A stretch of 64,000 bases of DNA from Anaerolineae bacterium. Lineage in GTDB: Bacteria; Chloroflexota; Anaerolineae; Anaerolineales; UBA4823. Shown here piece after piece: positions 872 through 48,235 of this stretch; position 1 is the stretch's first letter, and every line of letters begins with the position of its first letter. The notes below the pieces were generated by a model. It worked only from the letters and a program-made list of their open reading frames with translations, ran no database searches and was not told where the DNA came from. A program made the translations under genes and the position numbers. The DNA is taken from positions 331,650 to 395,649 of the forward strand of contig JBBIVW010000002.1 of the NCBI GenBank assembly GCA_037439525.1. Reading direction: 5' to 3'.

Positions 872-2686
872 ATGCCATTAGACTTGCATAAATCGAATTT
901 TGAATCTTTGCAATCCATTTTGCGAGATTTGGAAGCCGAGTTGGCTGCGGGGAGTGGACGGGATTATCTGGCAAAGGCATACCAGTATTTGGAAAAACTG
1001 GGGGAGGATTTGAAGCGCAGTGAGGAACAAAGTCATCTGGCAGTTCTTTACCAGGTTTCGCGAATTTTGGGCACATCTCTCGATCTGGACGAAGTGCTCG
1101 CCCAAGTTATGGACGCCGTGATCCGTTTGACCGGCGCGGAACGAGGCTTTTTGGTGCTGATTGAGGAAGGGGAGGATTGGAAGTTGCGCGCCGCACGAAA
1201 TTTCGTGCAGGAAACGCTTTCGCACAAGGACATGGAGGTAAGCCGTACGATTATCGATACGGTGTTGGAACGGGGAGAAGGGGTGGTTACGACAGACGCA
1301 CAAACCGACCCGCGGTTTTCTGGCACGGAATCGGTAGTCTTTTATGCTTTGCGCTCCATCATGTGTGCGCCGCTTTTAGCGCGCGGCCAAATCATTGGAG
1401 CAATTTATGTCGATAATCGCACCCAAGCGGGCTTGTTTACCCGTCGCGATTTGGAAATGCTGAACACCCTGGCTATTCAAGCGGCGATTGTGATCGAGAA
1501 CGCGCGCCTGTACACCCGCACCGACCAGGCTCTAACACGCCGAGTGGAGGAACTCGAAACCTTGGCTCAGATTGACCGCGAGTTGAATACCCGCTTAGAT
1601 GTCGAACATGTCTTGGAGATCTTACACAAATGGGCGCAGAAGGAAAGCCATTCGGCACATGTGTGGATCAAGCTCCTTTCGGATGAAAAAACCAATACTC
1701 CACCGGTTGCTGTTTATCCTGAACCCCTACCGCATGTGCTGGAAAATGAACGGGGCATCGAAAAGGCAATCGCAGAATTAGCACCACAGACGGTACGGGT
1801 TGCCGAAGGGGAGCAAATATACCTGATCATTCCTATCCCGCATAGTGGCAAGCCAATTGGCGTGCTGGTTTTTGAACGCGCGCAACCTTATCACCAAGAT
1901 GAAATCAGTTTTTTAGGTCATCTTGCCGGTAGGGCTGCCGCGGCTTTGGAAAATGCCCGTCTTTATCAGGCTTTGCATTTCGCCAATCAGGCGAAGTCCC
2001 AGTTTGTGTCTATGGTTTCCCATGAACTCCGCATTCCCATGACATCCATCCGTGGCTACACCGATTTACTTCAACAAGGTGTGGTAGGAGCAGTCAACGA
2101 ACAGCAGGTGAAATTCCTGGAGGTGATCCGCAACAACGTTGACCGCATGTCGGCGTTGGTCGCGGACTTGTCGGATATCTCCCGCATCGAAACAGGGCGT
2201 CTGAAGTTGGAACGAAAAGCACTAGAGTTGCCCCATTATATTGACGAAACGCTTCAAAGGCTGAGACCTAAATTCGAAGAGAAGGGTCAACGTCTGGCAC
2301 TTGAATTGGAAGAAGCGCTTCCAGAGGTATATGCAGACCCTAACCGCCTGGTCCAGGTGCTCACCAATTTGATGAGTAATGCCTGCAAATACACGCCTGA
2401 AGGGGGAGAGATTCGTGTTGTGGCGAGACAGGTTGAAAAAGCTGTGCGTGTGGATGTCGTGGATACAGGTATCGGGATTGACCCGAAAGACCACGGCAAG
2501 ATCTTTTCTCAGTTCTTTCGTTCGGATGACCCCGTCGTTCGCAATGAGCAGGGATGGGGTTTGGGCTTGAATGTGACTAAAAGCCTGGTGGAGCTGATGG
2601 GGGGCGAAATCGGTTTTGTCAGCGCCGCAGGGGAGGGGAGTATTTTTTGGTTTACAATCCCATTGGCGTCTGAGGAAAATTTCTAA
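872..2686 (+). CDS. Sensor histidine kinase with coiled-coil N-terminus and two GAF domains
   Basis: H-box 'SHELRIPMTSIRGY', N-box 'LTNLMSNACKYTPEGG', G-boxes 'DTGIGI' and 'GWGLGL'. GAF-like 'GFLVLIEE...IGAIYVDN'. Confidence 0.9.
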   Translation: MPLDLHKSNFESLQSILRDLEAELAAGSGRDYLAKAYQYLEKLGEDLKRSEEQSHLAVLYQVSRILGTSLDLDEVLAQVMDAVIRLTGAERGFLVLIEEGEDWKLRAARNFVQETLSHKDMEVSRTIIDTVLERGEGVVTTDAQTDPRFSGTESVVFYALRSIMCAPLLARGQIIGAIYVDNRTQAGLFTRRDLEMLNTLAIQAAIVIENARLYTRTDQALTRRVEELETLAQIDRELNTRLDVEHVLEILHKWAQKESHSAHVWIKLLSDEKTNTPPVAVYPEPLPHVLENERGIEKAIAELAPQTVRVAEGEQIYLIIPIPHSGKPIGVLVFERAQPYHQDEISFLGHLAGRAAAALENARLYQALHFANQAKSQFVSMVSHELRIPMTSIRGYTDLLQQGVVGAVNEQQVKFLEVIRNNVDRMSALVADLSDISRIETGRLKLERKALELPHYIDETLQRLRPKFEEKGQRLALELEEALPEVYADPNRLVQVLTNLMSNACKYTPEGGEIRVVARQVEKAVRVDVVDTGIGIDPKDHGKIFSQFFRSDDPVVRNEQGWGLGLNVTKSLVELMGGEIGFVSAAGEGSIFWFTIPLASEENF

Positions 2687-3520: not shown

Positions 3521-5470
3521 TTAATGAGCACCCTCTCGTTTCTCGTGCGGGACGATGTCTGCTTGCGGGAGCATGATGGTAAATACAGTCCCTTTACCAG
3601 GCGCGGAATCGAGCCAGATGCGCCCCTGGTGGTTTTCGACTATGGATTTGACAATTGCCAACCCTAAACCGGTGCCGGTTGTGGATGCAGCCACATTGCT
3701 CGCGCGATAGAACTTATCGAAGATAAAGGATTGTTCTGCCACGGGGATCCCCACTCCGGTATCCGCTACTTGTAGAACGACTTGCTCTTTTTCCGCGCGC
3801 GCCAGGAGGCGAATCTCTCCTCCCTCCGGCGTGTATTTGATGGCATTGTCTATCAAGTTCAGCAGCATCTGTCGCAATCGCAGTGGATTCCCCAACACGT
3901 AAGGAAGGTTTTCAGGCACGTCCGTGATCAGGTTGATCTTCTTCTTCTCAATGCGCTGATCGATTCCATCGAGTACATAGTGGATCACCAGAGAAAGAGG
4001 GATGCGCTCTTTCTCTAAGTCAAACCCTGCTTCAATCCGCCCCAAATCGAGCAAATCGTTTATCAAAGCGGTAATATTATGGACGCTGTTTTTTATCCGC
4101 TGGACAAACTCTCTTTGTTGATCGTTGAGTGGTCCGATGCGGTCAAGCAGTTCTACATAACCCAAAATCGCCGTAAGTGGCGACCGCAAGTCGTGGGACA
4201 CGGCGCTTACGAATTCCGATTTAATGCGGTCCAGCTCTTTTTGTTGAGTGATTTCCTGCATAGTGATGGCCGTGCCAATTTCCGGAATTGGAGTGGCTGT
4301 GGCACGATATATGCGCCCGTTCTCGACCTGGAACTCAATTTTAGGGTTCAGGGATGTGGGAGTTTGTTCGATGAGGTCGACCAGCTCTTTACATGGAAGC
4401 ACCTCTCGGGCTGTTTTGCCCAACACCTGTTCCTGGGTCAACGATAAAGCCTCTCTGGCTTGTAAGTTGATCATCATTACGCGTTGCTCGTGATCGACTA
4501 CCAAAACTCCATCGATAATGTTTTCTAGCAACGTATGGAGTTTTTGCTGTTCCTGGCGAACATGGGTGTAGAGACGTGCGTTTTCGATGGCAATGGCCGC
4601 ATAATCGGCTAGGGTGGACAAGAGTGCCAAGTGACTTTCGAGGAAGGGACGCTGACTTTGACGGTTGTCCACAGAAAGCACCCCGATGGCTTTCCCTTGG
4701 ATCGTGATGGGCACGTAGATCAAGTTATAGACCATGAAAGAGGTTTTGATTTTGTGAGGTGCCTCTCGATCCAGGATGAGAGGTTTTCCCGAGCGCAGAA
4801 CTTCACCTGCTAGGCTATCCTCTACAGGAAGGCGAAAGGTCCTGGCGAATTCTTCCTGGAAATTCTTTTGAGCGCGTACGTACAGCTCGCCGCCCGGTTC
4901 ATCCAAGAGCATCAAGTTGCCTTCTTCTGCGTTCGTTAGAGTCACCGAGGCTTCTACCACAGCGCTCAGCACTTTATCGATATCCAGCGAATGGGTCAAT
5001 TCACGCCCGATGCGGTGAATCGTCTCGAGCAAATCCACCTGCTCTTTGAGGCTTGCAGTGTCCCGCGCCGAGACCATTCGGGCATATTCCTGTTGCCGTT
5101 TGGAGGCCTTTATGGCGCGCTCGAGTGATGCGGATAACTCTTGTATCTTGAGTGGAGTTTGGAGCAGATCGAAAAAATCCAACCGCAATGCTTCTAAAGG
5201 GGAAATCGTGGGCTGCTCCAAACAAAGCAGAATCACAGGGCTCAATGGAGCAAGATGACTGAGGTCTTCTTTGATGCTGTAGATATCGGCTTCGGGTAGA
5301 GGTACACCCAATAGGATCGCCTGGGGAGGATGGCGCATGAGCAGGTTCTTTGCCTCTTGCCAGGAAGTGGTCATTATAGGATAGAAATGTGATGATGTTT
5401 GCAAGCTACGCGCGATGAGGTCGCGTGTGGGTTCATCATGCAAGATAACGAGCAGTGGATGGCTTTCCAT
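3521..5470 (-). CDS. Histidine kinase with receiver-like (Asp-less) N-terminal domain, GAF and PAS domains
   Basis: H-box 'SHDLRSPLTAILGY', N-box 'LLNLIDNAIKYTPEGG', 'DTGVGI', 'GTGLGLAI'. GAF 'GNLMLLDE...IGVLSVDN'. PAS 'LENIIDGVLVVD'. Confidence 0.9.
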   Translation of the reverse strand: MESHPLLVILHDEPTRDLIARSLQTSSHFYPIMTTSWQEAKNLLMRHPPQAILLGVPLPEADIYSIKEDLSHLAPLSPVILLCLEQPTISPLEALRLDFFDLLQTPLKIQELSASLERAIKASKRQQEYARMVSARDTASLKEQVDLLETIHRIGRELTHSLDIDKVLSAVVEASVTLTNAEEGNLMLLDEPGGELYVRAQKNFQEEFARTFRLPVEDSLAGEVLRSGKPLILDREAPHKIKTSFMVYNLIYVPITIQGKAIGVLSVDNRQSQRPFLESHLALLSTLADYAAIAIENARLYTHVRQEQQKLHTLLENIIDGVLVVDHEQRVMMINLQAREALSLTQEQVLGKTAREVLPCKELVDLIEQTPTSLNPKIEFQVENGRIYRATATPIPEIGTAITMQEITQQKELDRIKSEFVSAVSHDLRSPLTAILGYVELLDRIGPLNDQQREFVQRIKNSVHNITALINDLLDLGRIEAGFDLEKERIPLSLVIHYVLDGIDQRIEKKKINLITDVPENLPYVLGNPLRLRQMLLNLIDNAIKYTPEGGEIRLLARAEKEQVVLQVADTGVGIPVAEQSFIFDKFYRASNVAASTTGTGLGLAIVKSIVENHQGRIWLDSAPGKGTVFTIMLPQADIVPHEKREGAH

Positions 5471-5533: not shown

Positions 5534-6451
5534 TCATTTATCGAACGGCGTTTGCCACCACAGGATGGCAATGATCTCGCTGATCATATCCAGAAACTTC
5601 TTATCGATTTCGGAAAATGGTTGTGCAGATTTCCGTATCAGGGTGATCGTGCCGTGATCGATGCGCGCGGCTTTAATCGGCACAACAAGCGCGGCTTCAC
5701 CGAACCTGCCGATCGGGAATTTCTTGAGTGCCGCGCCATGCAAGCTAATTGCTTCGTTCTTTTGATTGGCCATCTTTGCCACCCCATCATCCCAAGCTTT
5801 TCCAAGCAAGACATGCGATCCGTAAGGGAGGTTTACCGCGGCTGCAAGAAGGTAATTTCGGGAAGTCGCCTGAAAGCGCAGCAGCCATCCCATGTCTGCA
5901 TTGCAAAATGTGACAGCTTCTTTGAGCAAGGTTTCTATTTTAGTCGCCTGTGTGAAATTGGAAGCCAGGACTTTTGCCATTGTGCGCATACTGGCGAGAA
6001 GGCGCGTGTTTTCCTGGTTTTCTTGCAATGATTTTGAAAGTTCCTGCTCAAGTCTGTTTCGCTCTTCCCTTAACCGTGACCGTACCAGCGTGCGTTCGAT
6101 CACTCCCCAAACCTCGGTTTCTTTTGCCGGCAGGAGGATGAAATCGCTTGCCCCAAGGCGAAGTGCCTGAACCAGCTTGCTCTCGCACCCTTTTTCGGCT
6201 AACAAGATGACTGGAATGGGCATGGATTGAGCCGAAAGCGCCACGAGCAGGTCTTTGCAACTAAGGCTTGTGAGGGCAAGTGAACACAAGATAAGATGAG
6301 GTGAGTAACGGTTTAGGTCCTGAATGGCTTGGGCGATCGTTCGCACGAGATGCACATGATGGCTGCGGTCAGATAGAACCTGCTTGACCAGCCACTCGAT
6401 GATCTCGGGTTGATCACAAACCAGCATGATGCGCTGCGCGTCGGGTATCAT
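5534..6451 (-). CDS. Receiver-like (Asp-less) domain protein fused to a GAF-like domain
   Basis: (beta-alpha)5 pattern 'IMLVCDQPE..HLILCSLAL..PVILLAEKG..SDFILLPAK', then a coiled linker and a GAF-like C-terminus. Lies 63 nt upstream of the kinase on the same strand. Confidence 0.65.
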   Translation of the reverse strand: MIPDAQRIMLVCDQPEIIEWLVKQVLSDRSHHVHLVRTIAQAIQDLNRYSPHLILCSLALTSLSCKDLLVALSAQSMPIPVILLAEKGCESKLVQALRLGASDFILLPAKETEVWGVIERTLVRSRLREERNRLEQELSKSLQENQENTRLLASMRTMAKVLASNFTQATKIETLLKEAVTFCNADMGWLLRFQATSRNYLLAAAVNLPYGSHVLLGKAWDDGVAKMANQKNEAISLHGAALKKFPIGRFGEAALVVPIKAARIDHGTITLIRKSAQPFSEIDKKFLDMISEIIAILWWQTPFDK

Positions 6452-6552: not shown

Positions 6553-6582
6553 TTGACTTTTTACTCTATGGATATATACAAT
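6553..6582 (+). promoter_or_regulatory. Candidate sigma-70-type promoter for the HtrA-like protease gene
   Basis: TTGACT (6553-6558), 18-nt spacer, TACAAT (6577-6582), about 30 nt upstream of the ORF start. Confidence 0.35.
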
Positions 6583-6610: not shown

Positions 6611-7783
6611 ATGAGGCACACGGTGTGTTTAGGTCTTATGACAAGGACAAGAGGGTTATCGGCTTTCATCTCAGGAGCGTGGATGGTACTGTTCCTTTTC
6701 GCCTGCACCGCTCAGAGAACGATCGAGCAAGGAACTGAAATGGTAGTTCCCCCTTATATTACCCAGGGAGTAGCTCAATCACCCGCCTTGCTGGCTGGGA
6801 TGAGCCAGGAATTGGCGAGCATATATGCGCAGACCCATCCAGGCATTGTAGCGATTCGCGCCCTTAGCCCAGGAAGCGCATCTTTGGGTTCGGGCATTGT
6901 TATCGATTCAGCAGGACATATTGTGACCAATGCACATGTGCTCGCTGCCCAACAGGAAGAGGTAGAGGTGTTTTTCGCCTCCGGCTACAAAGCCCGCGGC
7001 AAGCTCGTCGGCATAGACCCGATCTCCGATCTGGCTGTGGTGAACGTTTCTGTACCCCAAAGCGAATTGCATCCCTTGATTTGGGGAGATTCGGATCAAG
7101 TGAGCGTTGGCCAGGTGGTGGTTGCTTTGGGCAACCCCTACGGCTTTCAGGGGGTGATGACCTTGGGCATCGTTTCCGGGTTGGGTAGGACCTTGCAATC
7201 CCTTAACCTGGAATCCGATGAGCGTTTGCAATCCATCGCCGAAGTCATTCAAACCGACGCCGCGCTCAGCCCAGGGAGTTCGGGTGGTGCCTTGCTGAAC
7301 CTTGAGGGCGAAGTCATTGGCGTGATCGCCCAGGTGCTGACCAGCGGCTTGGGTCGAGGCCAAGTAGGGGTAGGTTTTGCCATCACCGCAAACCTGGCAA
7401 AACGTATTGTGCCCTTCCTCATCGAAGAAGGAACGTTCACATATCCCTATCTGGGGATTTCCAGCCTGGGAGAAATCACCCTTGTAGAACAAGAAATTCT
7501 TGGCCTTCCTCAAGCCACGGGCATCTACATCACCAAAGTCCATCCTGGAGGGCCAGCCGAAAAGGCTGGGTTGTGCGCCGGAGAACAGATTACCAATCTA
7601 CCTGGCGTGCGCGCCGGGGGGGATTTAATCATCGCCGTAGATGGACATGCGCTGGTCAATTTCAACGATTTGATGCTTTATTTGATTAAGAATAAGCGCC
7701 CTGGTGATACAATATATCTAACCGTCTTACGCGGCGCTGAGCAATTAGAAATCAGTTTGATTCTGGGTGAAAAGCCTGAATAG
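6611..7783 (+). CDS. HtrA/DegP-family trypsin-like serine protease with C-terminal PDZ domain
   Basis: Catalytic triad context 'TNAHV', 'DLAVV', 'GSSGGALLN'. PDZ-like 'GIYITKVHPGGPAEKAGL'. N-terminal hydrophobic anchor. Confidence 0.85.
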   Translation: MRHTVCLGLMTRTRGLSAFISGAWMVLFLFACTAQRTIEQGTEMVVPPYITQGVAQSPALLAGMSQELASIYAQTHPGIVAIRALSPGSASLGSGIVIDSAGHIVTNAHVLAAQQEEVEVFFASGYKARGKLVGIDPISDLAVVNVSVPQSELHPLIWGDSDQVSVGQVVVALGNPYGFQGVMTLGIVSGLGRTLQSLNLESDERLQSIAEVIQTDAALSPGSSGGALLNLEGEVIGVIAQVLTSGLGRGQVGVGFAITANLAKRIVPFLIEEGTFTYPYLGISSLGEITLVEQEILGLPQATGIYITKVHPGGPAEKAGLCAGEQITNLPGVRAGGDLIIAVDGHALVNFNDLMLYLIKNKRPGDTIYLTVLRGAEQLEISLILGEKPE

Positions 7784-7859
7784 ATCGAAGTAAAAAACCA
7801 TTCAGGGGCGTGTTGGTTTTAATCATTATTGAACAACTACAAAAGACAAGGAGGCAGCC

Positions 7860-8954
7860 ATGTTTAGCGAGAAAGACTTACAGGAATTGCTGGAATTCAA
7901 AGGCTCGGCTCAAGTCCTTAGCGTCTTTTTAAACACAGATCCGCAAAAAGGCTCTTCCGATTTTCATAAGCGCAACCTGCGCAGCATGTTGAAGGATTTG
8001 GAAGCCCCCCAAGACATTGCCGCCATTTTGGATTACATCAACCATCAACATGATTGGTCTGGACGCAGCGTAGCCATGTATTCTAGCGCGGCTGCAGATT
8101 TTTTCAGAGCATTCACCTTTGCAGTGCCCATGCGCAGCCGCATGCATATCAGCGATCGCCCATATGTCAAGCCTCTGGCAGATTTACTCGATTTATACGG
8201 TGGTTTCGGCGTGGTTTTGGTGGATAAACAAGGCGCGCGTTTGTTTTACTACCATTTAGGCGAATTGAGAGAAGAAGAAGGCGTACTCGGGGAGAGTGTG
8301 CGCCGGACAAAACGCGGCGGCGGCTCCCAGTACGCCGGTCGGAGAGGAGGTGTGGCTGGAAACACGGATTACGTCGATGAGGTTACAGAACGAAACTTGC
8401 GTGAAGTAGCCGAAGTTGCGGCGAAGTTCTTCGCCGAAAATCAGGTACGCCGCATCCTGATCGGCGGGACGGATGAAAACGTGGCTTTGTTTCGCAGCCT
8501 CTTGCCCAAAGCCTGGCAGAGTCTTGTGGTGGGCAGCTTTCCCATGGCGATGACAGCTTCCGAAAGTGAAATCTTGGAAAAAGCCATTCAGATTGGGGAG
8601 AGGGCTGAAGAACGAAGGGAAGCTTTATTGGCGCAAAGCGTGGTGACCAGCGCAGCAAAAGGCAAGGGAGGGGTCGTCGGTTTGGATGATGTGTTGAAGT
8701 CGATTCATGAAGGCAGGGTGCAAACGCTTTTATTACGCGACGGCTACCGGGCGCCAGGGTTTCGCTGCATGGGTTGTGGTTTGATCTCTTCGGTCGAGTT
8801 TGAGGCTTGCCCTTATTGTGGGGGGAAGATCGACAGAATTGTGGATGTCGTTGAATTGGCGGTGCGCAGAGTGTTGAATTCGGGAGGAGAGGTTGAGGTT
8901 TTGCATATCGATGTTCCGGGTATTAAACACATCGGCGCGGTGTTACGCTATTGA
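7860..8954 (+). CDS. Bacterial eRF1/Pelota-like (VLRF1/baeRF1-type) release-factor homologue with Zn-ribbon insert
   Basis: Central-domain-like 'GVVLVDKQGARLFYY', loop 'RRTKRGGGSQYAGRRGG' resembling eRF1 'KKHGRGGQSALRF', eRF1 domain 3-like 'GGVVGLDDVLKSIHEGRVQTLLL', and 'CMGCG...CPYCGG'. Confidence 0.7.
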   Translation: MFSEKDLQELLEFKGSAQVLSVFLNTDPQKGSSDFHKRNLRSMLKDLEAPQDIAAILDYINHQHDWSGRSVAMYSSAAADFFRAFTFAVPMRSRMHISDRPYVKPLADLLDLYGGFGVVLVDKQGARLFYYHLGELREEEGVLGESVRRTKRGGGSQYAGRRGGVAGNTDYVDEVTERNLREVAEVAAKFFAENQVRRILIGGTDENVALFRSLLPKAWQSLVVGSFPMAMTASESEILEKAIQIGERAEERREALLAQSVVTSAAKGKGGVVGLDDVLKSIHEGRVQTLLLRDGYRAPGFRCMGCGLISSVEFEACPYCGGKIDRIVDVVELAVRRVLNSGGEVEVLHIDVPGIKHIGAVLRY

Positions 8955-9078
8955 CCGAAGAATCGTGGAGCGCATACGCGCACGCTGTCCAGAAGAAATG
9001 AGGCATCTGCGCATCTAGAGTTAAGCGAAAGGCCATTCCCGCCTGAACTGCTAAAGCAGCGCTGCTTTTACCATCGTT

Positions 9079-9109
9079 AGGGCGAAGCGATTTTCGCCCT
9101 AATTTTTTT
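9079..9109 (+). terminator. Rho-independent terminator in the convergent gap
   Basis: Stem AGGGCGAA (9079-9086) / TTCGCCCT (9093-9100), 6-nt loop, then AATTTTTTT. Confidence 0.6.
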
Positions 9110-9117
9110 AAAACTCC

Positions 9118-9747
9118 TTATTGAGTCAAAGCATTTTGGAGTTCTGTCAAAGCATTGGATAGGACATCCAGGTCGGATTGGGCTGCGTAAGCGTCTTTTT
9201 CCAGTTCCTGAAGCACCAGATCGAGGCGCACTTTCATACTATTGACCACACTGCGTTGGTACACAGGCAACTTTTGCTCCAACTCGTCCAGGAGATTTGC
9301 CGTGTTGCTCAAAGCCAGGTGCGCTTTTCCCGTGTCTTCCAACATGAGGGCAAGCTGCGCAGAGACCACATCCACGCGTATGTTCAAAATGAGGTTGAGT
9401 ATTTCGGCTTGCTCAATGCGATGAAGCAGCTTTTCATTCTCCTCTTGCAAGGCAGCGAGGCGAGCGGTTTGAGATTCGGCGGTTGCGCGGTCTGCTGTCG
9501 CTTGTTGGGATAACCCCAGGAGTTCGTTATCGGCCACCATTTTGCTCTGGCGCATGGGTACGTAAAGTGTGAATATCGCCAGGATGACACCCAATCCCAC
9601 CATGATGACCGCGCTGAGCACCCAGCGTAGAAACTTGCGGATCGGGGAGAGTGTGGGCATCTCTGAGAGGCTCTCTCCCTCTGTGGCTGCACCCTCTGAA
9701 TCAGGCAGGGATGTTTGCGGTTGCGAAGTGCTTTCTTTGTCTTCCAT
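9118..9747 (-). CDS. Single-pass membrane protein with extracytoplasmic coiled coil (HemX-like layout)
   Basis: Acidic/Ser-rich N-terminus, TM 'WVLSAVIMVGLGVILAIFTLYV', then heptad-rich sequence. RBS GGAGG lies upstream of the ATG. Confidence 0.6.
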   Translation of the reverse strand: MEDKESTSQPQTSLPDSEGAATEGESLSEMPTLSPIRKFLRWVLSAVIMVGLGVILAIFTLYVPMRQSKMVADNELLGLSQQATADRATAESQTARLAALQEENEKLLHRIEQAEILNLILNIRVDVVSAQLALMLEDTGKAHLALSNTANLLDELEQKLPVYQRSVVNSMKVRLDLVLQELEKDAYAAQSDLDVLSNALTELQNALTQ

Positions 9748-9766
9748 AAATAACCTCCAAAGTCGT

Positions 9767-10696
9767 TCAAGGAGTAGGGGTGGGGGTGAATGCAGACGAT
9801 AGAACCGGCGCAGGCGTTAGGGTACCCGTGCTTGAGAGCGTGGGTGAAGGAGTGGGGGTCGCGGTAGCGCTTGCTGGCAATCCGTGTTTCAGCAATTGCC
9901 AAGCAAGCTCAAGCGCTTCCGCCGCGATCACCGGCGCATCGGGTAGGTTCTGGCTGGCATCCTCCAGGTGTCCAATGATCTTGTCCAATGTCTCTAGCTG
10001 GAACTCCGGGACTTCAAGCGCACTGAGGATTTGCATGGCGGCTTCGATGTCTTGCTTTGCCAGGCCATAGTTATTTTGCACCAGTGAGAAACGGCTGCGG
10101 GTGAGCAATTCCATCGCCTTCACCAATTGAAGCTCGCGATACACTTTTTCGAGTGTCAGTTGACCCGCGGGGCTTAGTTCGAGATTTCCAACGCGCGCCT
10201 CTAAGGCATCGAAATCGTTGAGCAATGGTTCGATGGTTGCTTCTAACGTTGCTAAGTGTGCTTCGATCTGAGTTAGGGATTCACCCAGTTGCGCCAATTG
10301 GAGGGAAACAGACTCTTGAGTGGCAAGCAGATCCACCATCTGCGTTTCCTGTTTGGCAGCCAATTGTGCCGCCTGGCTGTTGAGACCATCCAGTAGTTGT
10401 TTGGTCGTGTCGTTGTCCGCTTCAATTTTGGAGAGGCGTTGCCGCATATCCTCCAGATGAGTCTGCAGATGTGCAGAAGCCTGTGCCTGGAGGGTCTGGT
10501 TTTGCTCTAAACTCCCCAGGCGTTGTTCCATCGGCTGGAGGTATTGTTGATACAGCATTGGGACGCCGAAGTACACCAACGCGGCGAACAACAAAATGGT
10601 AAGCACCAGAATCACAAGCCGAATCAAGGCGCGCAAGAAAGCCACAAAAGCCAGCCATAAGCGGCGCCCAAAAGAGGGAGGGTGGTTATCACTCAT
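9767..10696 (-). CDS. Single-pass membrane protein with long coiled coil and Pro/Thr-rich C-terminal tail
   Basis: TM 'LVILVLTILLFAALVYFGV', long Q/L/E-rich heptads, tail 'TATPTPSPTLSSTGTLTPAP...TPTPTP'. Start overlaps the upstream stop (ATGA). Confidence 0.6.
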   Translation of the reverse strand: MSDNHPPSFGRRLWLAFVAFLRALIRLVILVLTILLFAALVYFGVPMLYQQYLQPMEQRLGSLEQNQTLQAQASAHLQTHLEDMRQRLSKIEADNDTTKQLLDGLNSQAAQLAAKQETQMVDLLATQESVSLQLAQLGESLTQIEAHLATLEATIEPLLNDFDALEARVGNLELSPAGQLTLEKVYRELQLVKAMELLTRSRFSLVQNNYGLAKQDIEAAMQILSALEVPEFQLETLDKIIGHLEDASQNLPDAPVIAAEALELAWQLLKHGLPASATATPTPSPTLSSTGTLTPAPVLSSAFTPTPTP

Positions 10697-11577
10697 GGCA
10701 ACACCTCATTCAGCAATTGTTTTAACCCTTCCAGGAAGGTTTGGAAGCCATTAGTGCGAGTCTGAAGCTCTTCCACCTGACTTGCCAGGCTTACCAGTTG
10801 TTCGTTGAAAGTGGCGATTTGTGTGGAAAGGGCAGTTATATCGCGGTTCATCGCGCTCACCCCATCCTCCAGGCTGCTGATGCGACCCCCCAAGCCTTCC
10901 AGGTTATCCATACGCGTACGCAGGGTTTGCATGTTCTCTTCGAGCAAAGCAGATTGGCTTTGAAGGCTGGATACCTGATTGCGTAAATCGGCCACCTCGG
11001 CAGGTCGAACGAACCTCAGACCACCATTGAGCAGAGCCAGGGTGCCCAGGGTGAGGAGGATCGAAATGATAAAGGTGATCAGGCTGCCGGCTGTGATCGC
11101 CCCCAACATCTCGGATTGGGTGACGCCCAAAGGGCTTGTTCTCGATACTTGGGGTTGAGGGATGGGCGCCCCTGGGGCTGCCTGCGCCTGATCCTGTTTG
11201 GGAGATGGCGCCGCCTCGAAGACTGCTTCAGGGGGCTCTTCCGCTTCGGCTTCTACAACCTCCTCCTGGCTTTCGACTGCTGGTGCCACCTCCGCTTCGG
11301 TCGTCGAATGCGGTTCCGATTGAACGGAGGCTTCGATGACCTCTTCGGGGAGATACTTTGTTATTGGTGCCTCCTCTATGGTGGATAATGATAGATAAGG
11401 CGAAAAGCGCGCCAGAGATGCTTGGCCCACGCCACTCACGCGCCGCAAGTCTTCAATGGATGAAAATGGGCGTGCCTGGATGATGCGTTCCGCAAGCTGA
11501 CGCCCAATGCCGGGAATTTGAGTCAATTCATCAAGGCTTGCGGTGTTTAGATCGAATTTTGGGTTATTCTGGTTCAT
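10693..11577 (-). CDS. N-terminal ComEA-like helix-hairpin-helix domain, acidic linker, TM helix and C-terminal coiled coil
   Basis: 'LNTASLDELTQIPGIGRQLAERIIQARPFSSIEDLRRVSGVGQASL' (HhH x2), TM 'AITAGSLITFIISILLTLGTLALL', then heptad repeats. Confidence 0.65.
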   Translation of the reverse strand: MNQNNPKFDLNTASLDELTQIPGIGRQLAERIIQARPFSSIEDLRRVSGVGQASLARFSPYLSLSTIEEAPITKYLPEEVIEASVQSEPHSTTEAEVAPAVESQEEVVEAEAEEPPEAVFEAAPSPKQDQAQAAPGAPIPQPQVSRTSPLGVTQSEMLGAITAGSLITFIISILLTLGTLALLNGGLRFVRPAEVADLRNQVSSLQSQSALLEENMQTLRTRMDNLEGLGGRISSLEDGVSAMNRDITALSTQIATFNEQLVSLASQVEELQTRTNGFQTFLEGLKQLLNEVLP

Positions 11578-11607
11578 GGTTCATCGCCTCTCTCGCTCAT
11601 CGCGAAA

Positions 11608-12456
11608 CTAAGCTGCTTTTTTACCGTTTCCAGGGATCGTTTGGGGCATCGGATAAGGGGTAGGGATGTATTCTACAGATGGACGACCTGTGCCTGCCTG
11701 GGGATAGAGATTCATGAGTTGATATACTTCGGTAGGCACTTCGGTTTTAATCGGCAAACCTAACGCCCGCGCCTCATCCACCGAGATGGGATAGTCGTGT
11801 GTCCAGCGTCCGCGGGAAAGCTCGTTCGCCAGATGCTCGGCTTCTTCTTTTGGCATACGTGTGCTAAGGATCCGAGTGACGGTTTCTTTGACCTGAGCAA
11901 GCGCTTTTTTGCCAATATCGGCAAGGATTAGAGTTTCATCGCTGACTTCGTTGATATCCTTTTGTTCTAGCACTTTCAAAATCGATGCCGCCGGATATTT
12001 TCCCACTTGGGGGTCAACCGGCCCAAGCACGGCGTTTTCGTCCATGACAATCTCGTCCGCTGCCAGGGCGATCAGCGTGCCCCCAGAGAGGGCGTAATGG
12101 GGTACGAACACAGTCACTTTTGCTGGATGGCGACAAAGGGCATAGGCAATCTGCTCTGCAGCCAATACCAAGCCACCCGGTGTATGCAAGATGAGGTCAA
12201 TGGGCACCTGTGCGTCGGTGAGTTTGATGGCACGCAAAATCTCTTCGGAGTCGGTGATGTCGATGAAACGTGAGAGGGGAAACCCCAGGAAAGACAGTCG
12301 TTCCTGGCGGTGGATCAGGGCAATGGCGCGCGTCTTTCTTTTCTCCTCTAATTGTCGCAGGAGTTTGGTGCGCGCAGCCTCCAGGATTTTTTGTCGGATG
12401 ATCGGTTGAAGGAAGGAGATGATCAAGAACAGGGTAAAGATGAGCGTGATGTCCAT
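11608..12456 (-). CDS. SDH-family (Clp/SppA-fold) membrane-anchored serine protease
   Basis: N-terminal TM, 'LILHTPGGLVLAAEQIA', 'ALSGGTLIALAADEIVM'. Family named from memory (serine dehydrogenase proteinase family). Confidence 0.7.
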   Translation of the reverse strand: MDITLIFTLFLIISFLQPIIRQKILEAARTKLLRQLEEKRKTRAIALIHRQERLSFLGFPLSRFIDITDSEEILRAIKLTDAQVPIDLILHTPGGLVLAAEQIAYALCRHPAKVTVFVPHYALSGGTLIALAADEIVMDENAVLGPVDPQVGKYPAASILKVLEQKDINEVSDETLILADIGKKALAQVKETVTRILSTRMPKEEAEHLANELSRGRWTHDYPISVDEARALGLPIKTEVPTEVYQLMNLYPQAGTGRPSVEYIPTPYPMPQTIPGNGKKAA

Positions 12457-12498
12457 AGCTCGCCAACCTCCTCGTGTGTGGTGAACCTACTCAAAACC

Positions 12499-13215
12499 TC
12501 AAAATGGCCAATACTCATCAGGATACTGCCGGTAATAGACTGCGCGGCGTGGGGTGAAGAAGCGATGAAAGAGCATGCCGAAGAAAAAGCCTCCAATATG
12601 TGCCCACCAGGCGACGCCTCCCATGATGCCGGTCTGGGGCAGGCTGAGCAAGCCCGAGAACAATTGAGATACGAACCATAGCCCGAGGTAAATCACGGCA
12701 GGGATCTCAACAAACCATGGGAGAAAGAAGAGGGGCACCAGAGAGATGACCCTGGAGCGTGGAAACAGGATGAAGTACGCGCCGAGCACCCCTGCGATCG
12801 CCCCGCTTGCCCCAATGGCGGGCACACGGCTCGCAGGAGCAATGGCAGACTGTGCCAGGCCGGCGATTACACCGCTGATGAGGTAAAAAATCAAATACCG
12901 CCCAGAGCCCATGCGGTCTTCTACGTTGTCACCAAAGATGAATAATGTCCACATATTCGAAAGGAAATGAAACCAGCCCCCGTGTAAGAACATGTGGGTA
13001 AATAGGGTGATCAAAGGTAGCGGGTTTGCCGCCAAGCTTAGCGGGTCGTTGAGGTGCAGTCGCGCTGGGACGATGCCAAACAAACTAATCAAGCGATTAA
13101 GTACCGTGGAGGGTAGAGATGCCTCCAACAGGAATACCAGCGTTGTGGCGCCAATCAGCAGCCAGTTGACAATGGGGAAAGAATGTGAGCGGATGGTGTC
13201 TTTGAGAGGTAACAT
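12499..13215 (-). CDS. Rhomboid-family intramembrane serine protease
   Basis: 'HGGWFHFLSNM', catalytic 'GASGAIAGVLGAY' and 'AHIGGFFFG'. Multiple TM helices. Confidence 0.9.
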   Translation of the reverse strand: MLPLKDTIRSHSFPIVNWLLIGATTLVFLLEASLPSTVLNRLISLFGIVPARLHLNDPLSLAANPLPLITLFTHMFLHGGWFHFLSNMWTLFIFGDNVEDRMGSGRYLIFYLISGVIAGLAQSAIAPASRVPAIGASGAIAGVLGAYFILFPRSRVISLVPLFFLPWFVEIPAVIYLGLWFVSQLFSGLLSLPQTGIMGGVAWWAHIGGFFFGMLFHRFFTPRRAVYYRQYPDEYWPF

Positions 13216-14064: not shown

Positions 14065-14853
14065 TTACTTTTTGTGTAAAAATTTTTCCACAGCTTCGAT
14101 ATGTTCTTGCCCAACCCAAAGTGAGGGAAATTGCGCCCGCTCGTAACCTTTAGCGGCTTCGCGGTTGGCGATCGACGCCACGCGGAGCAGGCGTTTGATG
14201 GCATATACCGTTTCTTGAGGTTTGTTGGAAATCTCTTCGGCAAGTTGCAAAGCGCTATCCAAGGATTTTCCAGGTGCAGAGAGGCGATTTGCTAAGCCAA
14301 AGGTATAAGCCTCTTCGGCGCTGAGGATGCGCCCCGTGGTCAGCCACTCCAAGGAGCGGCTGTAGCCCACCAGTTGTGCCAGGCGCAACCCACCGCCCCA
14401 GCCAGGGGTGAGGCCCAGTTCGACTTGAACGAATCCAATCGTGGCTTGCGGGTCGAATACGCGCAAGTCGCATGCCAGGCAGATTTCTGCGCCACCGCCT
14501 CGCGCTGCCCCGTTGACCGCCGCGATCGTTGGGCAGGGCAGGGCATGTAAGCCATCCAGCGCTGTGCTCATCAATTCAGAAAGCCTTTGCCCATCCTGAA
14601 AGGTGGGAGAGCGGATCAGCTCTTTCAAATCACCTCCTGCAATAAAGGCGCCACCCGCGCCGGTCAGCACCACAGCGCGTACCGATGGGTACGTGTGCAA
14701 GTCTTCGATCAGTCGCGAAAAGGTGTGCATGTCCTCCCAGTTCAATGCGTTGCGCACTTCGGGGCGCTGGACTTTAAGCAGAGCGACCTCTGGTAAGGGC
14801 CATTCTAATAAAATCGCCACCAGACCTCCTTGACGGTTGAGGATAAATCGCAT
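14065..14853 (-). CDS. Enoyl-CoA hydratase/isomerase (crotonase) family protein
   Basis: 'RNALNWEDM...VVLTGAGGAFIAGGDLKE...AAVNGAARGGGAEICLACDLR'. Start trimmed to ATG 14853 because the longer ORF runs through tRNA-Pro. Confidence 0.85.
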   Translation of the reverse strand: MRFILNRQGGLVAILLEWPLPEVALLKVQRPEVRNALNWEDMHTFSRLIEDLHTYPSVRAVVLTGAGGAFIAGGDLKELIRSPTFQDGQRLSELMSTALDGLHALPCPTIAAVNGAARGGGAEICLACDLRVFDPQATIGFVQVELGLTPGWGGGLRLAQLVGYSRSLEWLTTGRILSAEEAYTFGLANRLSAPGKSLDSALQLAEEISNKPQETVYAIKRLLRVASIANREAAKGYERAQFPSLWVGQEHIEAVEKFLHKK

Positions 14854-14859
14854 TATACT
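14830..14859 (+). promoter_or_regulatory. Candidate promoter of tRNA-Pro
   Basis: TTGACG (14830-14835), 18-nt spacer, TATACT (14854-14859), about 10 nt before the tRNA 5' end. Confidence 0.4.
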
Positions 14860-14868
14860 CAATTCCAT

Positions 14869-14943
14869 CGGGGCGTAGCGCAGTCCGGTCAGCGCACCGC
14901 GTTTGGGACGCGGGGGTCGGCGGTTCAAATCCGCCCGCCCCGA
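14869..14943 (+). tRNA. tRNA-Pro (anticodon TGG), CCA not encoded
   Basis: Hand-folded cloverleaf. Acceptor CGGGGCG/CGCCCCG, D stem GCGC/GCGC, anticodon stem CCGCG/CGCGG with loop TTTGGGA, T arm GGCGG-TTCAAAT-CCGCC, discriminator A. Confidence 0.9.
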
Positions 14944-14987
14944 CTGAATGAAGAGCATCATCGTATCCCACCGCTCTGGGAGGGTAT

Positions 14988-15299
14988 ATGGCAAAACAGA
15001 AACTTGACGGCGTCATCGAAGCAGTCCACTACCAGACCGATGGACAGGTAGATTGGGTGCGCGCCTATCTCAGGCGTGGCCCCGTTTTTTCTGATCTGGT
15101 GATTCTAGACCGACAAACACTCATCGACCTTCTGCGTTCAGGAAAGCGTTTTATGGTGGGTGAGCGCGTCGCATATATGGGCGCGCAATTCAACCTTTCG
15201 CATCCACTGCGCCTGGTGCAAAAGGATGGTAAAGCCGTTCTAGTCGTTGGCGATGGCGACGCGGAACACGACAGATTGGATGGGGTGCCGCAGCTCTAG
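14988..15299 (+). CDS. Small hypothetical protein (103 aa)
   Basis: Clean ORF with ATG start downstream of tRNA-Pro. No family recognised. Confidence 0.45.
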   Translation: MAKQKLDGVIEAVHYQTDGQVDWVRAYLRRGPVFSDLVILDRQTLIDLLRSGKRFMVGERVAYMGAQFNLSHPLRLVQKDGKAVLVVGDGDAEHDRLDGVPQL

Positions 15300-32858: not shown

Positions 32859-34049
32859 ATGAAGAGAACTTTGTTATTTGGCTGCCTGTTGTTTGCAGGG
32901 GCATTGCTCCTGGTCGCATGTCAACCCGCGCCCACTCCGCAGGTGGTTGAGGTCACCAAAGAGGTCATCGTTACCCAAGAAGTGCCCGTGGAAGTGATCA
33001 AAGAAGTGGTGGTTACCCAGGAAGTGATGGTGGAGCCTCCAGCGCCTTGGGAGGTTGCCCATGAACGCGTGCCGCTTTCGCTGCATGCCACCACACAAGG
33101 CATGCGTTATTTCTATAGCGCTGAGCAGGGGGGCATCGAACTGCTTACCAACGTGCCGTATGATGATTTACAGTGTAAGAACTGTCATGTCGGTGAGGTG
33201 GATGGCGAAACCAACTGTGCTGCTTGCCATATTACCCAGGTGAGTGATGCCCCACCTCAATTCAAGTGCATCGTTTGTCATGGTCGCCAAAACTTCGAGA
33301 TGATGGCAAAAAATCCCGATGGCACACCTGGGATGAGCGATGTGCATTATGCCAAGGGCATGCAATGCATCAACTGCCATGGTGTCGACCAGATTCATGG
33401 TGATGGTGAGTCTTACAACTCGCTGCATGAGATGGACCTGGTCGCTTGCGAGGACTGCCATGCGGAAATCAATATGGAAGTGCAAGCACACAGTGTGCAT
33501 AACGAGAATTTGGATTGCGCTGCCTGCCATGTCAAGAATGTGATCAATTGCGTCAATTGCCACTTTGACACCGAGTTGGAAGGCGGTCCAAAAGTGCAAC
33601 AGACGCGCTACTTCAACTGGAAGTTCCTGCTGAAGGACGCTCAAACAGGCAAGATCACCACAGGTACGATCATGTCCATGGTCACCGGCGGGAAGTCCTT
33701 TGTGGCTGCCGCGCCGTTCTACGGACACACGATTGTCAAGCCAGATGCGGCAGCGATCTGCGATGAATGCCATCAATCCGCAGCCGTTGCCGAGTATCTG
33801 GCGACTGGGAAGATCACCATTCAAAAATGGGATGCAGCCCAGGGTAAGTTCATCTTTGCTACTGGGGTGATCCCCTTCCCTCCGGATTACATCGAGGCGT
33901 TCATCATGGACTTCGTCACCCGCGATGGAGATACCTGGAACGAGACCTTTAGCAACTGGATCTTTTTGAAGACGGGTGTAGATTTGTGGCAGATGCTCTT
34001 TGCCCAACCGCTGGATAAGATGCCTCCCCAAATGGATGTGACACCTTAG
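32859..34049 (+). CDS. Octahaem c-type cytochrome, predicted lipoprotein
   Basis: Eight CxxCH motifs (CKNCH, CAACH, CIVCH, CINCH, CEDCH, CAACH, CVNCH, CDECH). Signal peptide with lipobox 'LLVAC'. Confidence 0.85.
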   Translation: MKRTLLFGCLLFAGALLLVACQPAPTPQVVEVTKEVIVTQEVPVEVIKEVVVTQEVMVEPPAPWEVAHERVPLSLHATTQGMRYFYSAEQGGIELLTNVPYDDLQCKNCHVGEVDGETNCAACHITQVSDAPPQFKCIVCHGRQNFEMMAKNPDGTPGMSDVHYAKGMQCINCHGVDQIHGDGESYNSLHEMDLVACEDCHAEINMEVQAHSVHNENLDCAACHVKNVINCVNCHFDTELEGGPKVQQTRYFNWKFLLKDAQTGKITTGTIMSMVTGGKSFVAAAPFYGHTIVKPDAAAICDECHQSAAVAEYLATGKITIQKWDAAQGKFIFATGVIPFPPDYIEAFIMDFVTRDGDTWNETFSNWIFLKTGVDLWQMLFAQPLDKMPPQMDVTP

Positions 34050-34090
34050 GTCCCCTTTGCACTCTCCAGGCAGTAGGTGGGTAGGGAATA

Positions 34091-34117
34091 GGGAGCGATG
34101 CTTCGCTCCCTTTTTTT
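34091..34117 (+). terminator. Rho-independent terminator after the cytochrome gene
   Basis: GGGAGCGA (34091-34098) / TCGCTCCC (34103-34110), 4-nt loop, T7 run (34111-34117). Confidence 0.7.
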
Positions 34118-34118
34118 A

Positions 34119-35030
34119 TTAGCCTGTGACCAGGTCTAGGTTATCGGAATCATGGATAAACCCCCAAAACAATTCTGCCGGTCGGGAGGTTGTATGGTTG
34201 GCAGAGCGTAACATGCAAATCTTGCGCTGCAAGTCGAAGCCAGCAACCTTCACCTCACACACGCGCCCGGCTTCCAGGGCGAATTTCGCGGAGGCTTTAG
34301 AGACGAAAGAAACGCCCACTCCCGCTGCAACGGCGGCCACGATTGATTCTGCATTGCCCAGCTCCAGAACGATGTTCAAGTCTTCCAGGGCGATGTCATG
34401 TGCTGCCAGGGCGGATTGCATCACGCGCCGCGTGCCAGAAGTGGCTTCGCGAATGAGAAAAGGTTCTTGTAGGATTTCCTCGGGTTGGATTTCTTGGCGT
34501 GTACACCAAGGATGGCCCACGGGTGTGATCAGCACGATGGTGTCTGTAAAGAAATGCTGACATTCCAGGTCTGGAGTGACGGCTTCGAAACTTACTACCG
34601 CCAGGTCGGCGGTTTCATTGCGCAGCATCTCCTCCACATCCACCGGACGGCAGAGCAGGATTTTCACCTGAACGCGGGGAAAGCGCGTTCGGAAGCGGAC
34701 GGATAACATCGGCAGGATATACTTCCCTGCTGCTGTCGTGCAGGCGATAAGCAAAGGACCGGCGACTTCCCCCTTCAGCGATTGAGCCATCTCTTGAAAA
34801 CGAGTGTATTCCAGGAACAGTTGCCTCGCCCAGGGCACGAGTGCCTCACCGGTTTGTGTCAGGCGCAACTTGGAGCCAAGGCGTTCAAATAGATCGGTTT
34901 GCAGTTCGTGCTCCAAATCCTGAATGTGCTTGCTCACCGTTGACTGGCTGATGTGTAGCCTTTGCGCGGTTTCGGAGAAATTCAGCGTCTGGGTGGCGTC
35001 CAGGAAGGTTCTGATACGTTCTATTTCCAT
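34119..35030 (-). CDS. LysR-family transcriptional regulator
   Basis: N-terminal wHTH 'FSETAQRLHISQSTVSKHIQDLE' and a typical LTTR substrate-binding domain length. Confidence 0.9.
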   Translation of the reverse strand: MEIERIRTFLDATQTLNFSETAQRLHISQSTVSKHIQDLEHELQTDLFERLGSKLRLTQTGEALVPWARQLFLEYTRFQEMAQSLKGEVAGPLLIACTTAAGKYILPMLSVRFRTRFPRVQVKILLCRPVDVEEMLRNETADLAVVSFEAVTPDLECQHFFTDTIVLITPVGHPWCTRQEIQPEEILQEPFLIREATSGTRRVMQSALAAHDIALEDLNIVLELGNAESIVAAVAAGVGVSFVSKASAKFALEAGRVCEVKVAGFDLQRKICMLRSANHTTSRPAELFWGFIHDSDNLDLVTG

Positions 35031-35231
35031 AATGCTCGTGGTGATAAAGATTTATGCGCGCGATTCGATACGGAACTCAATGGCGCCTCATCAAGCATAC
35101 GTAGAGATGATTAATAGTAACACGATATTGATACAATATGCTTAGGCCGCTCATGTAAAAATCCGCCATTAGCCCCGCGATCGAAATGCTACATTCACAG
35201 GATATGTGCAAAACCCGAATATTGCTCCACA

Positions 35232-36005: not shown

Positions 36006-36006
36006 G

Positions 36007-37614: not shown

Positions 37615-37682
37615 GGTTTAGCGAGTGAAAGATGCATGTCCGTGTATGCTGATTAGAAACATCTCCATTCTACCAGAAGCGT

Positions 37683-48046: not shown

Positions 48047-48235
48047 GGTTTGAATTTTAGCACAGCTCACCCCGTAGAGAATGCGCCGCTCCTGTGTGGG
48101 ATCAGGAACATCGCCCGAATAAGGCGCAAGGATACCTCCTGTAAAGATGCCGACCCCCGTCTGTGCGCGCGTGCACTCTGCACGTGCTTGGGCTGCACGC
48201 GCCGTATTGTCGTTGGCTGGGTTTGCCTTCAGGTT

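Follow-up and report, generated by a model that had tools for sequence, protein, structure and literature searches.

The window analysed here is a 64,000-nucleotide stretch of contig JBBIVW010000002.1 from an Anaerolineae bacterium (assembly GCA_037439525.1), and its gene at positions 7860..8954 (+) encodes a protein of 364 amino acid residues that belongs to baeRF-1 family 10 of the aeRF1 superfamily and is a relative of the ribosome hibernation factor Balon. The coding sequence begins with ATG, and a Shine-Dalgarno sequence, AAGGAGG (7849..7855, +), ends 5 nt before it. An earlier reading of the DNA, made from the letters alone and called here the original prediction, had reported this open reading frame (ORF) and quoted several peptides from it. 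The frame is real: the ribosome-binding site is good and all of the quoted strings are found in the product, GVVLVDKQGARLFYY at residues 117-131, RRTKRGGGSQYAGRRGG at residues 148-164 (nucleotides 8301-8351) and GGVVGLDDVLKSIHEGRVQTLLL at residues 270-292. No second baeRF copy was found in the window.

The upstream neighbour (6611..7783, +) encodes an HtrA-type serine protease with Trypsin_2 and PDZ domains. The best sigma-70-like promoter match, TTGACT-18-TACAAT (6553..6582, +), is located 5' of htrA; it is a consensus match only, with 10 of 12 positions in agreement, from which htrA and baeRF might be transcribed together. The only promoter-like site nearer to baeRF is a weak one at 7686-7713 (9/12 matches). 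A terminator-like hairpin with a 12-bp stem and a T-run (9076..9110, +; hairpin 9076-9103) lies about 120 nt past the baeRF stop codon and is common to the baeRF gene and a convergent gene at 9118-9747 (-). The gene had been described as monocistronic, between htrA and a terminator. The HtrA gene on the 5' side and the hairpin on the 3' side are present, but monocistronic transcription is not established: the 76-nt gap between htrA and baeRF contains no terminator-like site, and the orthologues usually have dnaJ or htrA upstream on the same strand. Rfam and tRNA scans gave no non-coding RNA near the baeRF gene; the only two tRNAs are elsewhere in the window.

The protein is a bacterial aeRF1 homologue of family 10. 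The top-scoring baeRF model in Pfam is baeRF_family10 (PF18854) with 146.8 bits and E = 6.9e-43 at a cut-off of 27.1, followed by family 3 (38.2 bits) and family 2 (37.5 bits). The similarity to the family is far beyond chance; 2,342 homologues were found in a set of 5.8 billion proteins, and the nearest all come from metagenome-assembled genomes of Anaerolineales/Chloroflexota. This score, together with the structural comparison below, bears out the placement of the product in the aeRF1 (eRF1/Pelota) superfamily, as a bacterial protein that stands alone and has middle and C-terminal domains. The baeRF-1 clade was defined by Burroughs & Aravind in 2019, and most of its families are without the catalytic Gln. 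Family 10 was singled out there for 'a well-conserved glutamine' and as possibly a peptidyl hydrolase. The same authors described an insertion in the C domain that is either a Zn ribbon or what is left of one, two strands; baeRF-1 proteins never displace bacterial RF1/RF2 (PMC6514570).

Comparison with characterized proteins leads mainly to Balon. In NCBIfam the top matches are three 'ribosome hibernation factor' (Balon) families and the aRF1 model TIGR03676, all far under their equivalog cut-offs (for aRF1, 37 bits against 234.7). The top match among PDB sequences in a single-sequence search is Msmeg1130, the Balon of M. smegmatis, with E = 7e-7. A family profile built from 54 members matches Msmeg1130 with 2.3e-32, aRF1 (4af1) with 2.3e-23, Rv2629 with 1.4e-20, eRF1 with about 1e-18 and P. 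urativorans Balon with 5.7e-8. The Msmeg1130 and Rv2629 sequences were rebuilt from the PDB-search alignments and scanned with Pfam; Msmeg1130 (PDB 8v9j/8v9l) is likewise a member of baeRF_family10, with 124.6 bits, and Rv2629 falls in family 2.

Two other assignments were ruled out. The original prediction had placed the protein in the Vms1/VLRF1 clade. The profile search does match an aeRF1-type family, but the acVLRF1 model scores 15.5 bits, under its cut-off of 27.1; NCBIfam gives no Vms1 match, and no Vms1 chain occurs among the hidden Markov model (HMM) matches to the PDB at E ≤ 0.01 or among the 50 Foldseek matches listed. Membership in this clade is thus rejected by the Pfam, NCBIfam, PDB-HMM and Foldseek results. 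A canonical release factor that reads stop codons is excluded as well, because the NIKS and YxCxxxF motifs are missing and TIGR03676 is so far under its cut-off.

The structure was modelled with AlphaFold2 (AF2) from 118 orthologues, with a predicted local distance difference test score (pLDDT) of 88 and a predicted template-modelling score (pTM) of 0.79 for the window protein. The best Foldseek matches in the PDB are Msmeg1130 (E = 1.5e-25, template-modelling (TM) score 0.78), Rv2629 (TM 0.70) and P. urativorans Balon (TM 0.62-0.64). The TM score is about 0.5 for aRF1/eRF1 and lower still for Pelota (TM 0.2-0.44, E = 1e-8 to 1e-5). The model has the three-domain N-M-C architecture of aeRF1 proteins, with Foldseek E-values of 1e-25 to 1e-13 against Balon, aRF1 and eRF1 over approximately 380-415 aligned columns. 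With aRF1 4af1 the family profile aligns end to end. Its alignment with Pelota is confined to portions of the M and C domains, and the Sm-like N-terminal domain and loop A of Pelota/Dom34 have no recognizable counterpart in the window protein.

The N-terminal domain spans residues 1-100 (7860..8159, +) and contains the family motif LSVFLNTDP. Its helix-loop-helix at residues 33-63 bears an acidic loop, KDLEAPQD, and no NIKS. In the profile alignment the NIKS stretch of aRF1/eRF1 corresponds to LKDLEAPQD and the YxCxxxF stretch to HISDRPY, the residues of the window protein having been mapped by us; codon reading is therefore not expected. The middle domain, of RNase H-like, eRF1_2 type, comprises residues 101-246 (8160..8597, +) and is the region matched by the Pfam baeRF_family10 model. 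The segment 'VKPL' aligns with 'IHPL' of Msmeg1130; its near-invariant K104 and P105 are a tentative counterpart of the HP motif in the N domain of Balon. The C-terminal domain, of eRF1_3/Pelota type, comprises residues 247-364 (8598..8951, +) and closes with the superfamily motif IGAVLRY, which is kept in the family as IGAxLRY.

The Zn ribbon inserted in the C-terminal domain, already recognized in the original prediction, is CMGC-x10-CPYC (residues 303-320; 8766..8819, +) and takes the position at which aRF1 has its Cys-containing insert. Its four Cys residues (C303, C306, C317 and C320) are kept by all of the 120 closest homologues and are at least 93% conserved in 110 representatives of family 10. 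In the profile alignment Msmeg1130 has a Cys-free, beta-hairpin-like segment at this position, which is the site of Balon's EF-Tu-binding hairpin according to PMC6514570 and PMC10901736. A two-strand insert of this kind in the C domain is regarded as a degenerate Zn ribbon (PMC6514570).

The segment topologically equivalent to the GGQ loop of release factors is a Gly/Arg-rich loop, RRTKRGGGSQYAGRRGGVAGNT, at residues 148-169 (8301..8366, +). It contains the string GGGSQ, the codon of Gln157 being 8328-8330. In the AF2 model the loop, residues 144-166, connects a strand (135-143) with a helix (167-193), as the GGQ loop does. Residues 151-168 are the sole part of the model with low confidence, their pLDDT being below 50; the loop is thus flexible and exposed, in agreement with the exposure expected of the GGSQ segment in the original prediction. 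The register of the Gln is ambiguous, because two alignments differ. Pairwise alignment with wheat eRF1 sets Gln157 on the Gln of GGQ, as had been proposed. In the family-profile alignment with aRF1, Gly-Gly falls on Gly-Gly, but the column of the GGQ Gln is occupied by Trp or Gly and the family Gln follows two residues later.

The Gln had been expected to be conserved among orthologues, and this is largely contradicted. The orthologue set consisted of 82 sequences, 81 from GTDB representative Anaerolineales genomes with 55-65% identity at the same locus and one from the window. The Gln157 column contains Q in 51 of them, A in 16, S in 11 and T in 4, which requires at least 12 independent changes on a neighbour-joining tree. 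The Gln-less copies have the same flanking genes, for HtrA, a response regulator and a kinase, and since they occupy the same locus they are orthologues and not paralogues. K151, G153, G154 and S156 are 100% conserved in this set, and G160, R162, G163 and G164 at 94% or more. The loop length is fixed within the group, nearly all members being 366 residues long. Residues 155 and 157 (codons 155-157, 8322-8330) co-vary: 48 sequences have G...Q, and sequences that have lost the Gln mostly have Ala or Ser at 155 (GGASS, GGASA, GGSSA), a pattern that may reflect shared ancestry or functional coupling. The loop hardly varies in the 120 closest homologues, which are 60-84% identical, and Gln157 is Q in 117 of them, while the corresponding column in the 110 family representatives has Q in 36, A in 26, E in 17 and S in 10. 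The Gln is expendable among the orthologues; the K-x-G-G-x-S core and the Zn ribbon are not.

In a sister group of 370-residue Chloroflexi proteins (about 48% identity) the loop reads KHGRGSA. A separate clade with 27-32% identity and the pattern PGWH[KD]QGGW[SA]QARFQRH keeps the Gln in 86 of 99 members, and it is probably this clade that the 2019 paper described (PMC6514570). Compared with the canonical loop of family 10 (HKQGGW..-QRH), the Anaerolineae subclade has an insertion of 8-11 residues, GRRGGxAG.

The original prediction found no partner in the gene context. Partners do appear when orthologues are compared: dnaJ, htrA, hsp20, merR and clpB are recurrent neighbours. Of 81 Anaerolineales loci surveyed, 64 have dnaJ and/or htrA directly 5' on the same strand, and the median gaps are 54-92 nt. 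The gene directly upstream is of dnaJ type (J domain and DnaJ_C) in 31 loci, dnaJ is followed by htrA in 27, and htrA only is found in 6, as in the window, so that htrA immediately precedes the orthologue in 33; neither gene was detected in the remaining 17, several of which are on incomplete contigs. An hsp20 gene occurs at a distance of 6 kb or less in 29 loci. Divergent from htrA in the window are genes for a receiver-GAF protein with no obvious output domain (5534-6451, -), kept in 44 of the 81 loci, and for a PAS/GAF histidine kinase (3521-5470, -), kept in 43. This pair could be a local regulator. A second GAF kinase gene lies at 872-2686 (+).

More distant members of the family were reached through a metagenome scan and contig look-ups, since the first, broad alignment was too diverse for a locus scan and a narrower one returned only Anaerolineales genomes. 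The nearest non-orthologous relatives (35-49% identity) have no Gln at this position; their loci, too, contain dnaJ/htrA, joined there by merR and clpB. The locus of the 370-residue Chloroflexi group is arranged as dnaJ-htrA-X-(Clp_N protein)-clpB, X being the baeRF gene, and two Gln-less proteins with 38% identity are found in the arrangements dnaJ-merR-X-clpB and groEL-grpE-dnaJ-htrA-merR-X. The pattern used for the metagenome scan had [AS] at the Gln column, so that its 46 loci of at least 5 kb are Gln-less by construction and the operon counts are valid for that clade only; on the same strand, 36 of them have clpB after the baeRF gene, and the genes before it include one of dnaJ type in 27, one of the merR family in 21 and htrA in 9. 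The cluster in these metagenomes can be written (hsp20)/(grpE)-dnaJ-(htrA)-merR-family regulator-baeRF10-clpB, all on the same strand and at times with two clpB genes; examples among loci L085-L166 are L166 (1715-12530), L161 (25-11535) and L113 (4547-9610). A literature search for a merR/hspR-baeRF-clpB operon found no paper describing one.

The Gln-conserving clade has other surroundings. In two genomes, one of them Candidatus Eisenbacteria by its NCBI name, the gene begins 12-43 nt after a gene for protein-L-isoaspartate O-methyltransferase (PCMT); in these PCMT-linked loci (L167, 5321-7113; L168, 5326-7116) the family-10 gene precedes a resistance-nodulation-division (RND)/MacB-type efflux system. 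In one further genome it adjoins an ArsA/HSP20-like gene. In another a gene with a FokI-like nuclease domain lies 5' and polysaccharide-export and glycosyltransferase genes lie 3', with no evident stress neighbour.

The rest of the window is ordinary chromosome, with genes for GMP synthase, isocitrate dehydrogenase, a succinate dehydrogenase flavoprotein, a penicillin-binding protein and solute-binding proteins, and the two tRNAs. Past the hairpin, three consecutive genes (9118-9747, 9767-10696 and 10693-11577, all -) encode coiled-coil proteins with N-terminal hydrophobic segments and no confident Pfam family, the last with a ComEA-like helix-hairpin-helix. They are followed on the same strand by an SDH-type ClpP-like serine protease (11608-12456) and a rhomboid protease (12499-13215), and the whole block 9118-13215 is syntenic in several orthologous loci. 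The longest ORF of an enoyl-CoA hydratase (14065-14994, -) overlaps tRNA-Pro(TGG) (14869-14944, +) on the opposite strand; its true start is probably downstream of the tRNA, because the Pfam match begins only at residue 70. Positions 34001-38000 have the lowest G+C content of the window, 0.486-0.487 compared with 0.53-0.57 around them, encode a LysR regulator (34119-35030) and a 535-residue protein with a partial DNA-methylase domain (36007-37614), and may be acquired DNA. A 747-residue ORF at 43711-45954 (+) has no Pfam match at E ≤ 1e-5 and adjoins a gene for a 657-residue FHA-domain protein (46097-48070, -).

The family, the fold and the gene order lead us to propose, with moderate confidence, that the window protein is a Balon-type A-site factor linked to proteotoxic stress. 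It would be made along with proteostasis and heat-shock genes, htrA in the window and dnaJ, hsp20, merR and clpB in relatives. It would then enter the ribosomal A site as a mimic of tRNA or eRF1, leaving the codon unread. Its N domain would occupy the decoding centre, the conserved Gly/Arg-rich loop in the M domain may bind 23S rRNA at or beside the peptidyl-transferase centre, and the C domain and its Zn ribbon would be turned towards the factor-binding site, at which Balon touches EF-Tu. Occupation of the A site would silence and shield ribosomes under heat or proteotoxic stress. The Gln of GGSQ could then be an ancestral remnant, unneeded for the function in the A site. Balon, Msmeg1130 and Rv2629 bind the A site, inhibit translation, are without NIKS and GGQ, and contact EF-Tu through a beta-hairpin of the C domain (Helena-Bueno et al., Nature 2024, PMC10901736). 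With Synechocystis Balon, seen on hibernating ribosomes in a 2026 preprint, four divergent bacterial aeRF1 homologues have now been placed in the A site of hibernating ribosomes, the other three being P. urativorans Balon, Msmeg1130 and Rv2629 (PMC10901736). Balon genes are often found beside stress genes including Hsp20, DnaK and DnaJ (PMC10901736), and the linkage seen here, with dnaJ/htrA in 64 of 81 loci and hsp20 in 29, matches these published neighbours.

Several observations weigh against this proposal. The characterized Balon proteins have only 15-19% identity to the window protein, and the NCBIfam families for MSMEG_1130, Rv2629 and AOC03_06830 score 99.2 against 480, 58 against 320 and 44.9 against 330 bits; since these equivalog cut-offs are not reached, the protein is a distant relative of Balon and not an equivalog. 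The characterized Balons, Msmeg1130 among them, have no Gly-Gly, no Gln and no four-Cys Zn ribbon, and the window protein has all three. The absence of GGQ, a trait of Balon, does not extend to a protein with GGGSQ, in which Gly-Gly is invariant and the Gln is present in 62% of orthologues. The mean column identity of the loop is 0.81, compared with 0.73 for the rest of the protein, which points to a precise function that may differ from that of the Balon 'lasso'. In release factors the conformation of the Gly-Gly backbone weighs more in catalysis than the Gln side chain does, so that loss of the Gln does not prove loss of hydrolase activity. CIRCE and HAIR operators were sought with a tolerance of 3 mismatches in the window and of 2 in 166 related loci, and no matches beyond those in shuffled controls were obtained; regulation by HrcA or through classical HspR sites is thus unsupported, and the link to stress comes from gene order only. 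Finally, no hpf/raiA gene is adjacent to the baeRF gene.

The best surviving alternative, which we regard as unlikely, is that the protein is an active, codon-independent peptidyl-tRNA hydrolase, a release or rescue factor for ribosomes stalled by heat or damage. The GG-x-S-Q loop would reach the peptidyl-transferase centre, and DnaJ, ClpB, Hsp20 and HtrA would refold or degrade the released chains; nascent-chain release would also be in keeping with neighbours in protein quality control. This reading is kept alive by the invariant Gly-Gly; the invariant S156, the Gln of most orthologues and of the window protein itself, and the fixed length of the loop also speak for it. The loop also fits the 'GGxSQ' pattern of the predicted active families, and family 10 was named as potentially catalytic (PMC6514570). 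The pairwise alignment, which sets Gln157 on the Gln of eRF1, is likewise in its favour. Release factors with Gln changed to Ala retain substantial hydrolytic activity in vitro. To our knowledge, however, every proven release-factor hydrolase family keeps its Gln with essentially no exception, unlike the present orthologues, in which it was replaced repeatedly at one and the same locus. The closest outgroups with the same operon context are entirely without it, and the profile alignment to aRF1 removes the family Gln from the GGQ column. The stop-codon and mRNA-channel motifs are missing, and the nearest characterized relatives are non-catalytic (PMC10901736).

A broader form of the same idea covers the Gly-Gly family-10 proteins of the dnaJ/htrA/clpB clusters as a group, the window protein included, and is, in our estimation, less likely than the hydrolase of the preceding paragraph. 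These proteins would free nascent chains from ribosomes stalled by heat without regard to the codon, by catalysing the release or by triggering it, and the chains would be passed to DnaJ, ClpB, Hsp20 and HtrA, giving an aeRF1-based bacterial counterpart of eukaryotic ribosome-associated quality control. If this is true, the Gln side chain would be free to vary because the K-x-G-G-x-S backbone would do the chemistry.

It is improbable that the protein acts as a non-catalytic rescue factor like Pelota/Dom34, entering the empty A site of stalled ribosomes and promoting subunit splitting or recycling with EF-Tu or another GTPase, and not long-term hibernation. In its favour, the window protein shares its three-domain fold with Pelota and aRF1, and the catalytic Gln is dispensable. 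Burroughs & Aravind raised the option for baeRF-1 proteins (PMC6514570), and in the Synechocystis preprint Balon is said to have a possible parallel in recycling factors. Pelota structures, however, match far worse than those of Balon or aRF1, and no splitting partner is encoded nearby. We also know of no bacterium with ABCE1.

A factor of Vms1/ANKZF1 type, acting on split large subunits to cleave peptidyl-tRNA at its CCA end, is very improbable in view of the failed profile and structure matches and the labile Gln, even though the G-S-Q string resembles the GxuQ/GGxSQ motifs of the VLRF-1 clade (PMC6514570) and some Gln-conserving family-10 proteins carry the NCBI name 'Vms1/Ankzf1 family peptidyl-tRNA hydrolase', which is a name only.

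Returning to the Balon-type A-site factor, it is important to separate what was known from what is added. The original prediction spoke of an uncharacterised activity, but family 10 with its Gln and Zn ribbon has been known since 2019 (PMC6514570), the ribosome-bound structure of another protein from this Pfam family followed in 2024, and the nearest characterized relatives are hibernation factors (PMC10901736). The text supplements of the Balon paper contain no Chloroflexi entries (PMC10901736). New here are four points: the Gln is labile among orthologues, the K-x-G-G-x-S core is invariant, the loop is extended in a way specific to Anaerolineae, and the dnaJ-(htrA)-merR-X-clpB linkage has been quantified. 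Family 10 is the baeRF branch most like a true release factor and is therefore the place to study the switch from a protein that releases peptides to one that parks ribosomes. Heat or proteotoxic stress is the condition suggested by the tie of this lineage to dnaJ, htrA, merR and clpB. Should the window protein be no more than a Balon variant, the gain is a routine one of annotation, with the label 'Balon-like factor' in place of 'hypothetical protein' or 'peptide chain release factor subunit 1'; a Gly-Gly loop that has remained catalytic would reveal a new rescue pathway in bacteria.

Among known systems, Balon (Msmeg1130 8v9j/8v9l, Rv2629 8v9k, P. urativorans 8rd8) is the closest to the window protein: it shares the three-domain fold and gives the best match in both sequence and structure. 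The two are likewise without NIKS, have an insertion at the same site of the C domain and are found in a context of stress and chaperone genes. Vms1/ANKZF1 of the VLRF-1 clade belongs to the same superfamily and has a similar G-S-Q loop string, but its domain architecture is different. The Gln of the VLRF-1 motif is absolutely conserved, and although the GGGSQ string fits that motif, the Gln is replaced in 31 of the 82 orthologues.

With aRF1 and eRF1 the protein has in common the M and C domains, a Gly-Gly loop at the GGQ position, a Cys-containing insert in the C domain and the G-x-x-A-x-LRY end. It differs from them in the missing NIKS and YxCxxxF motifs, in a Gln that is offset or labile, and in its coexistence with bacterial RF1/RF2. 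The family 10 of PMC6514570 and Pfam PF18854 is the group whose architecture, Zn ribbon and singled-out Gln the window protein has. Within this family, however, the Anaerolineae subclade is set apart by its extended loop, which in canonical members is 8-11 residues shorter and without GRRGGxAG, and by a Gln that is not stably conserved. The truly Gln-conserving clade is 27-32% identical to the window protein and has other gene contexts. In both similarity and gene context, the window protein is closer to the Gln-less lineage of the chaperone operons.

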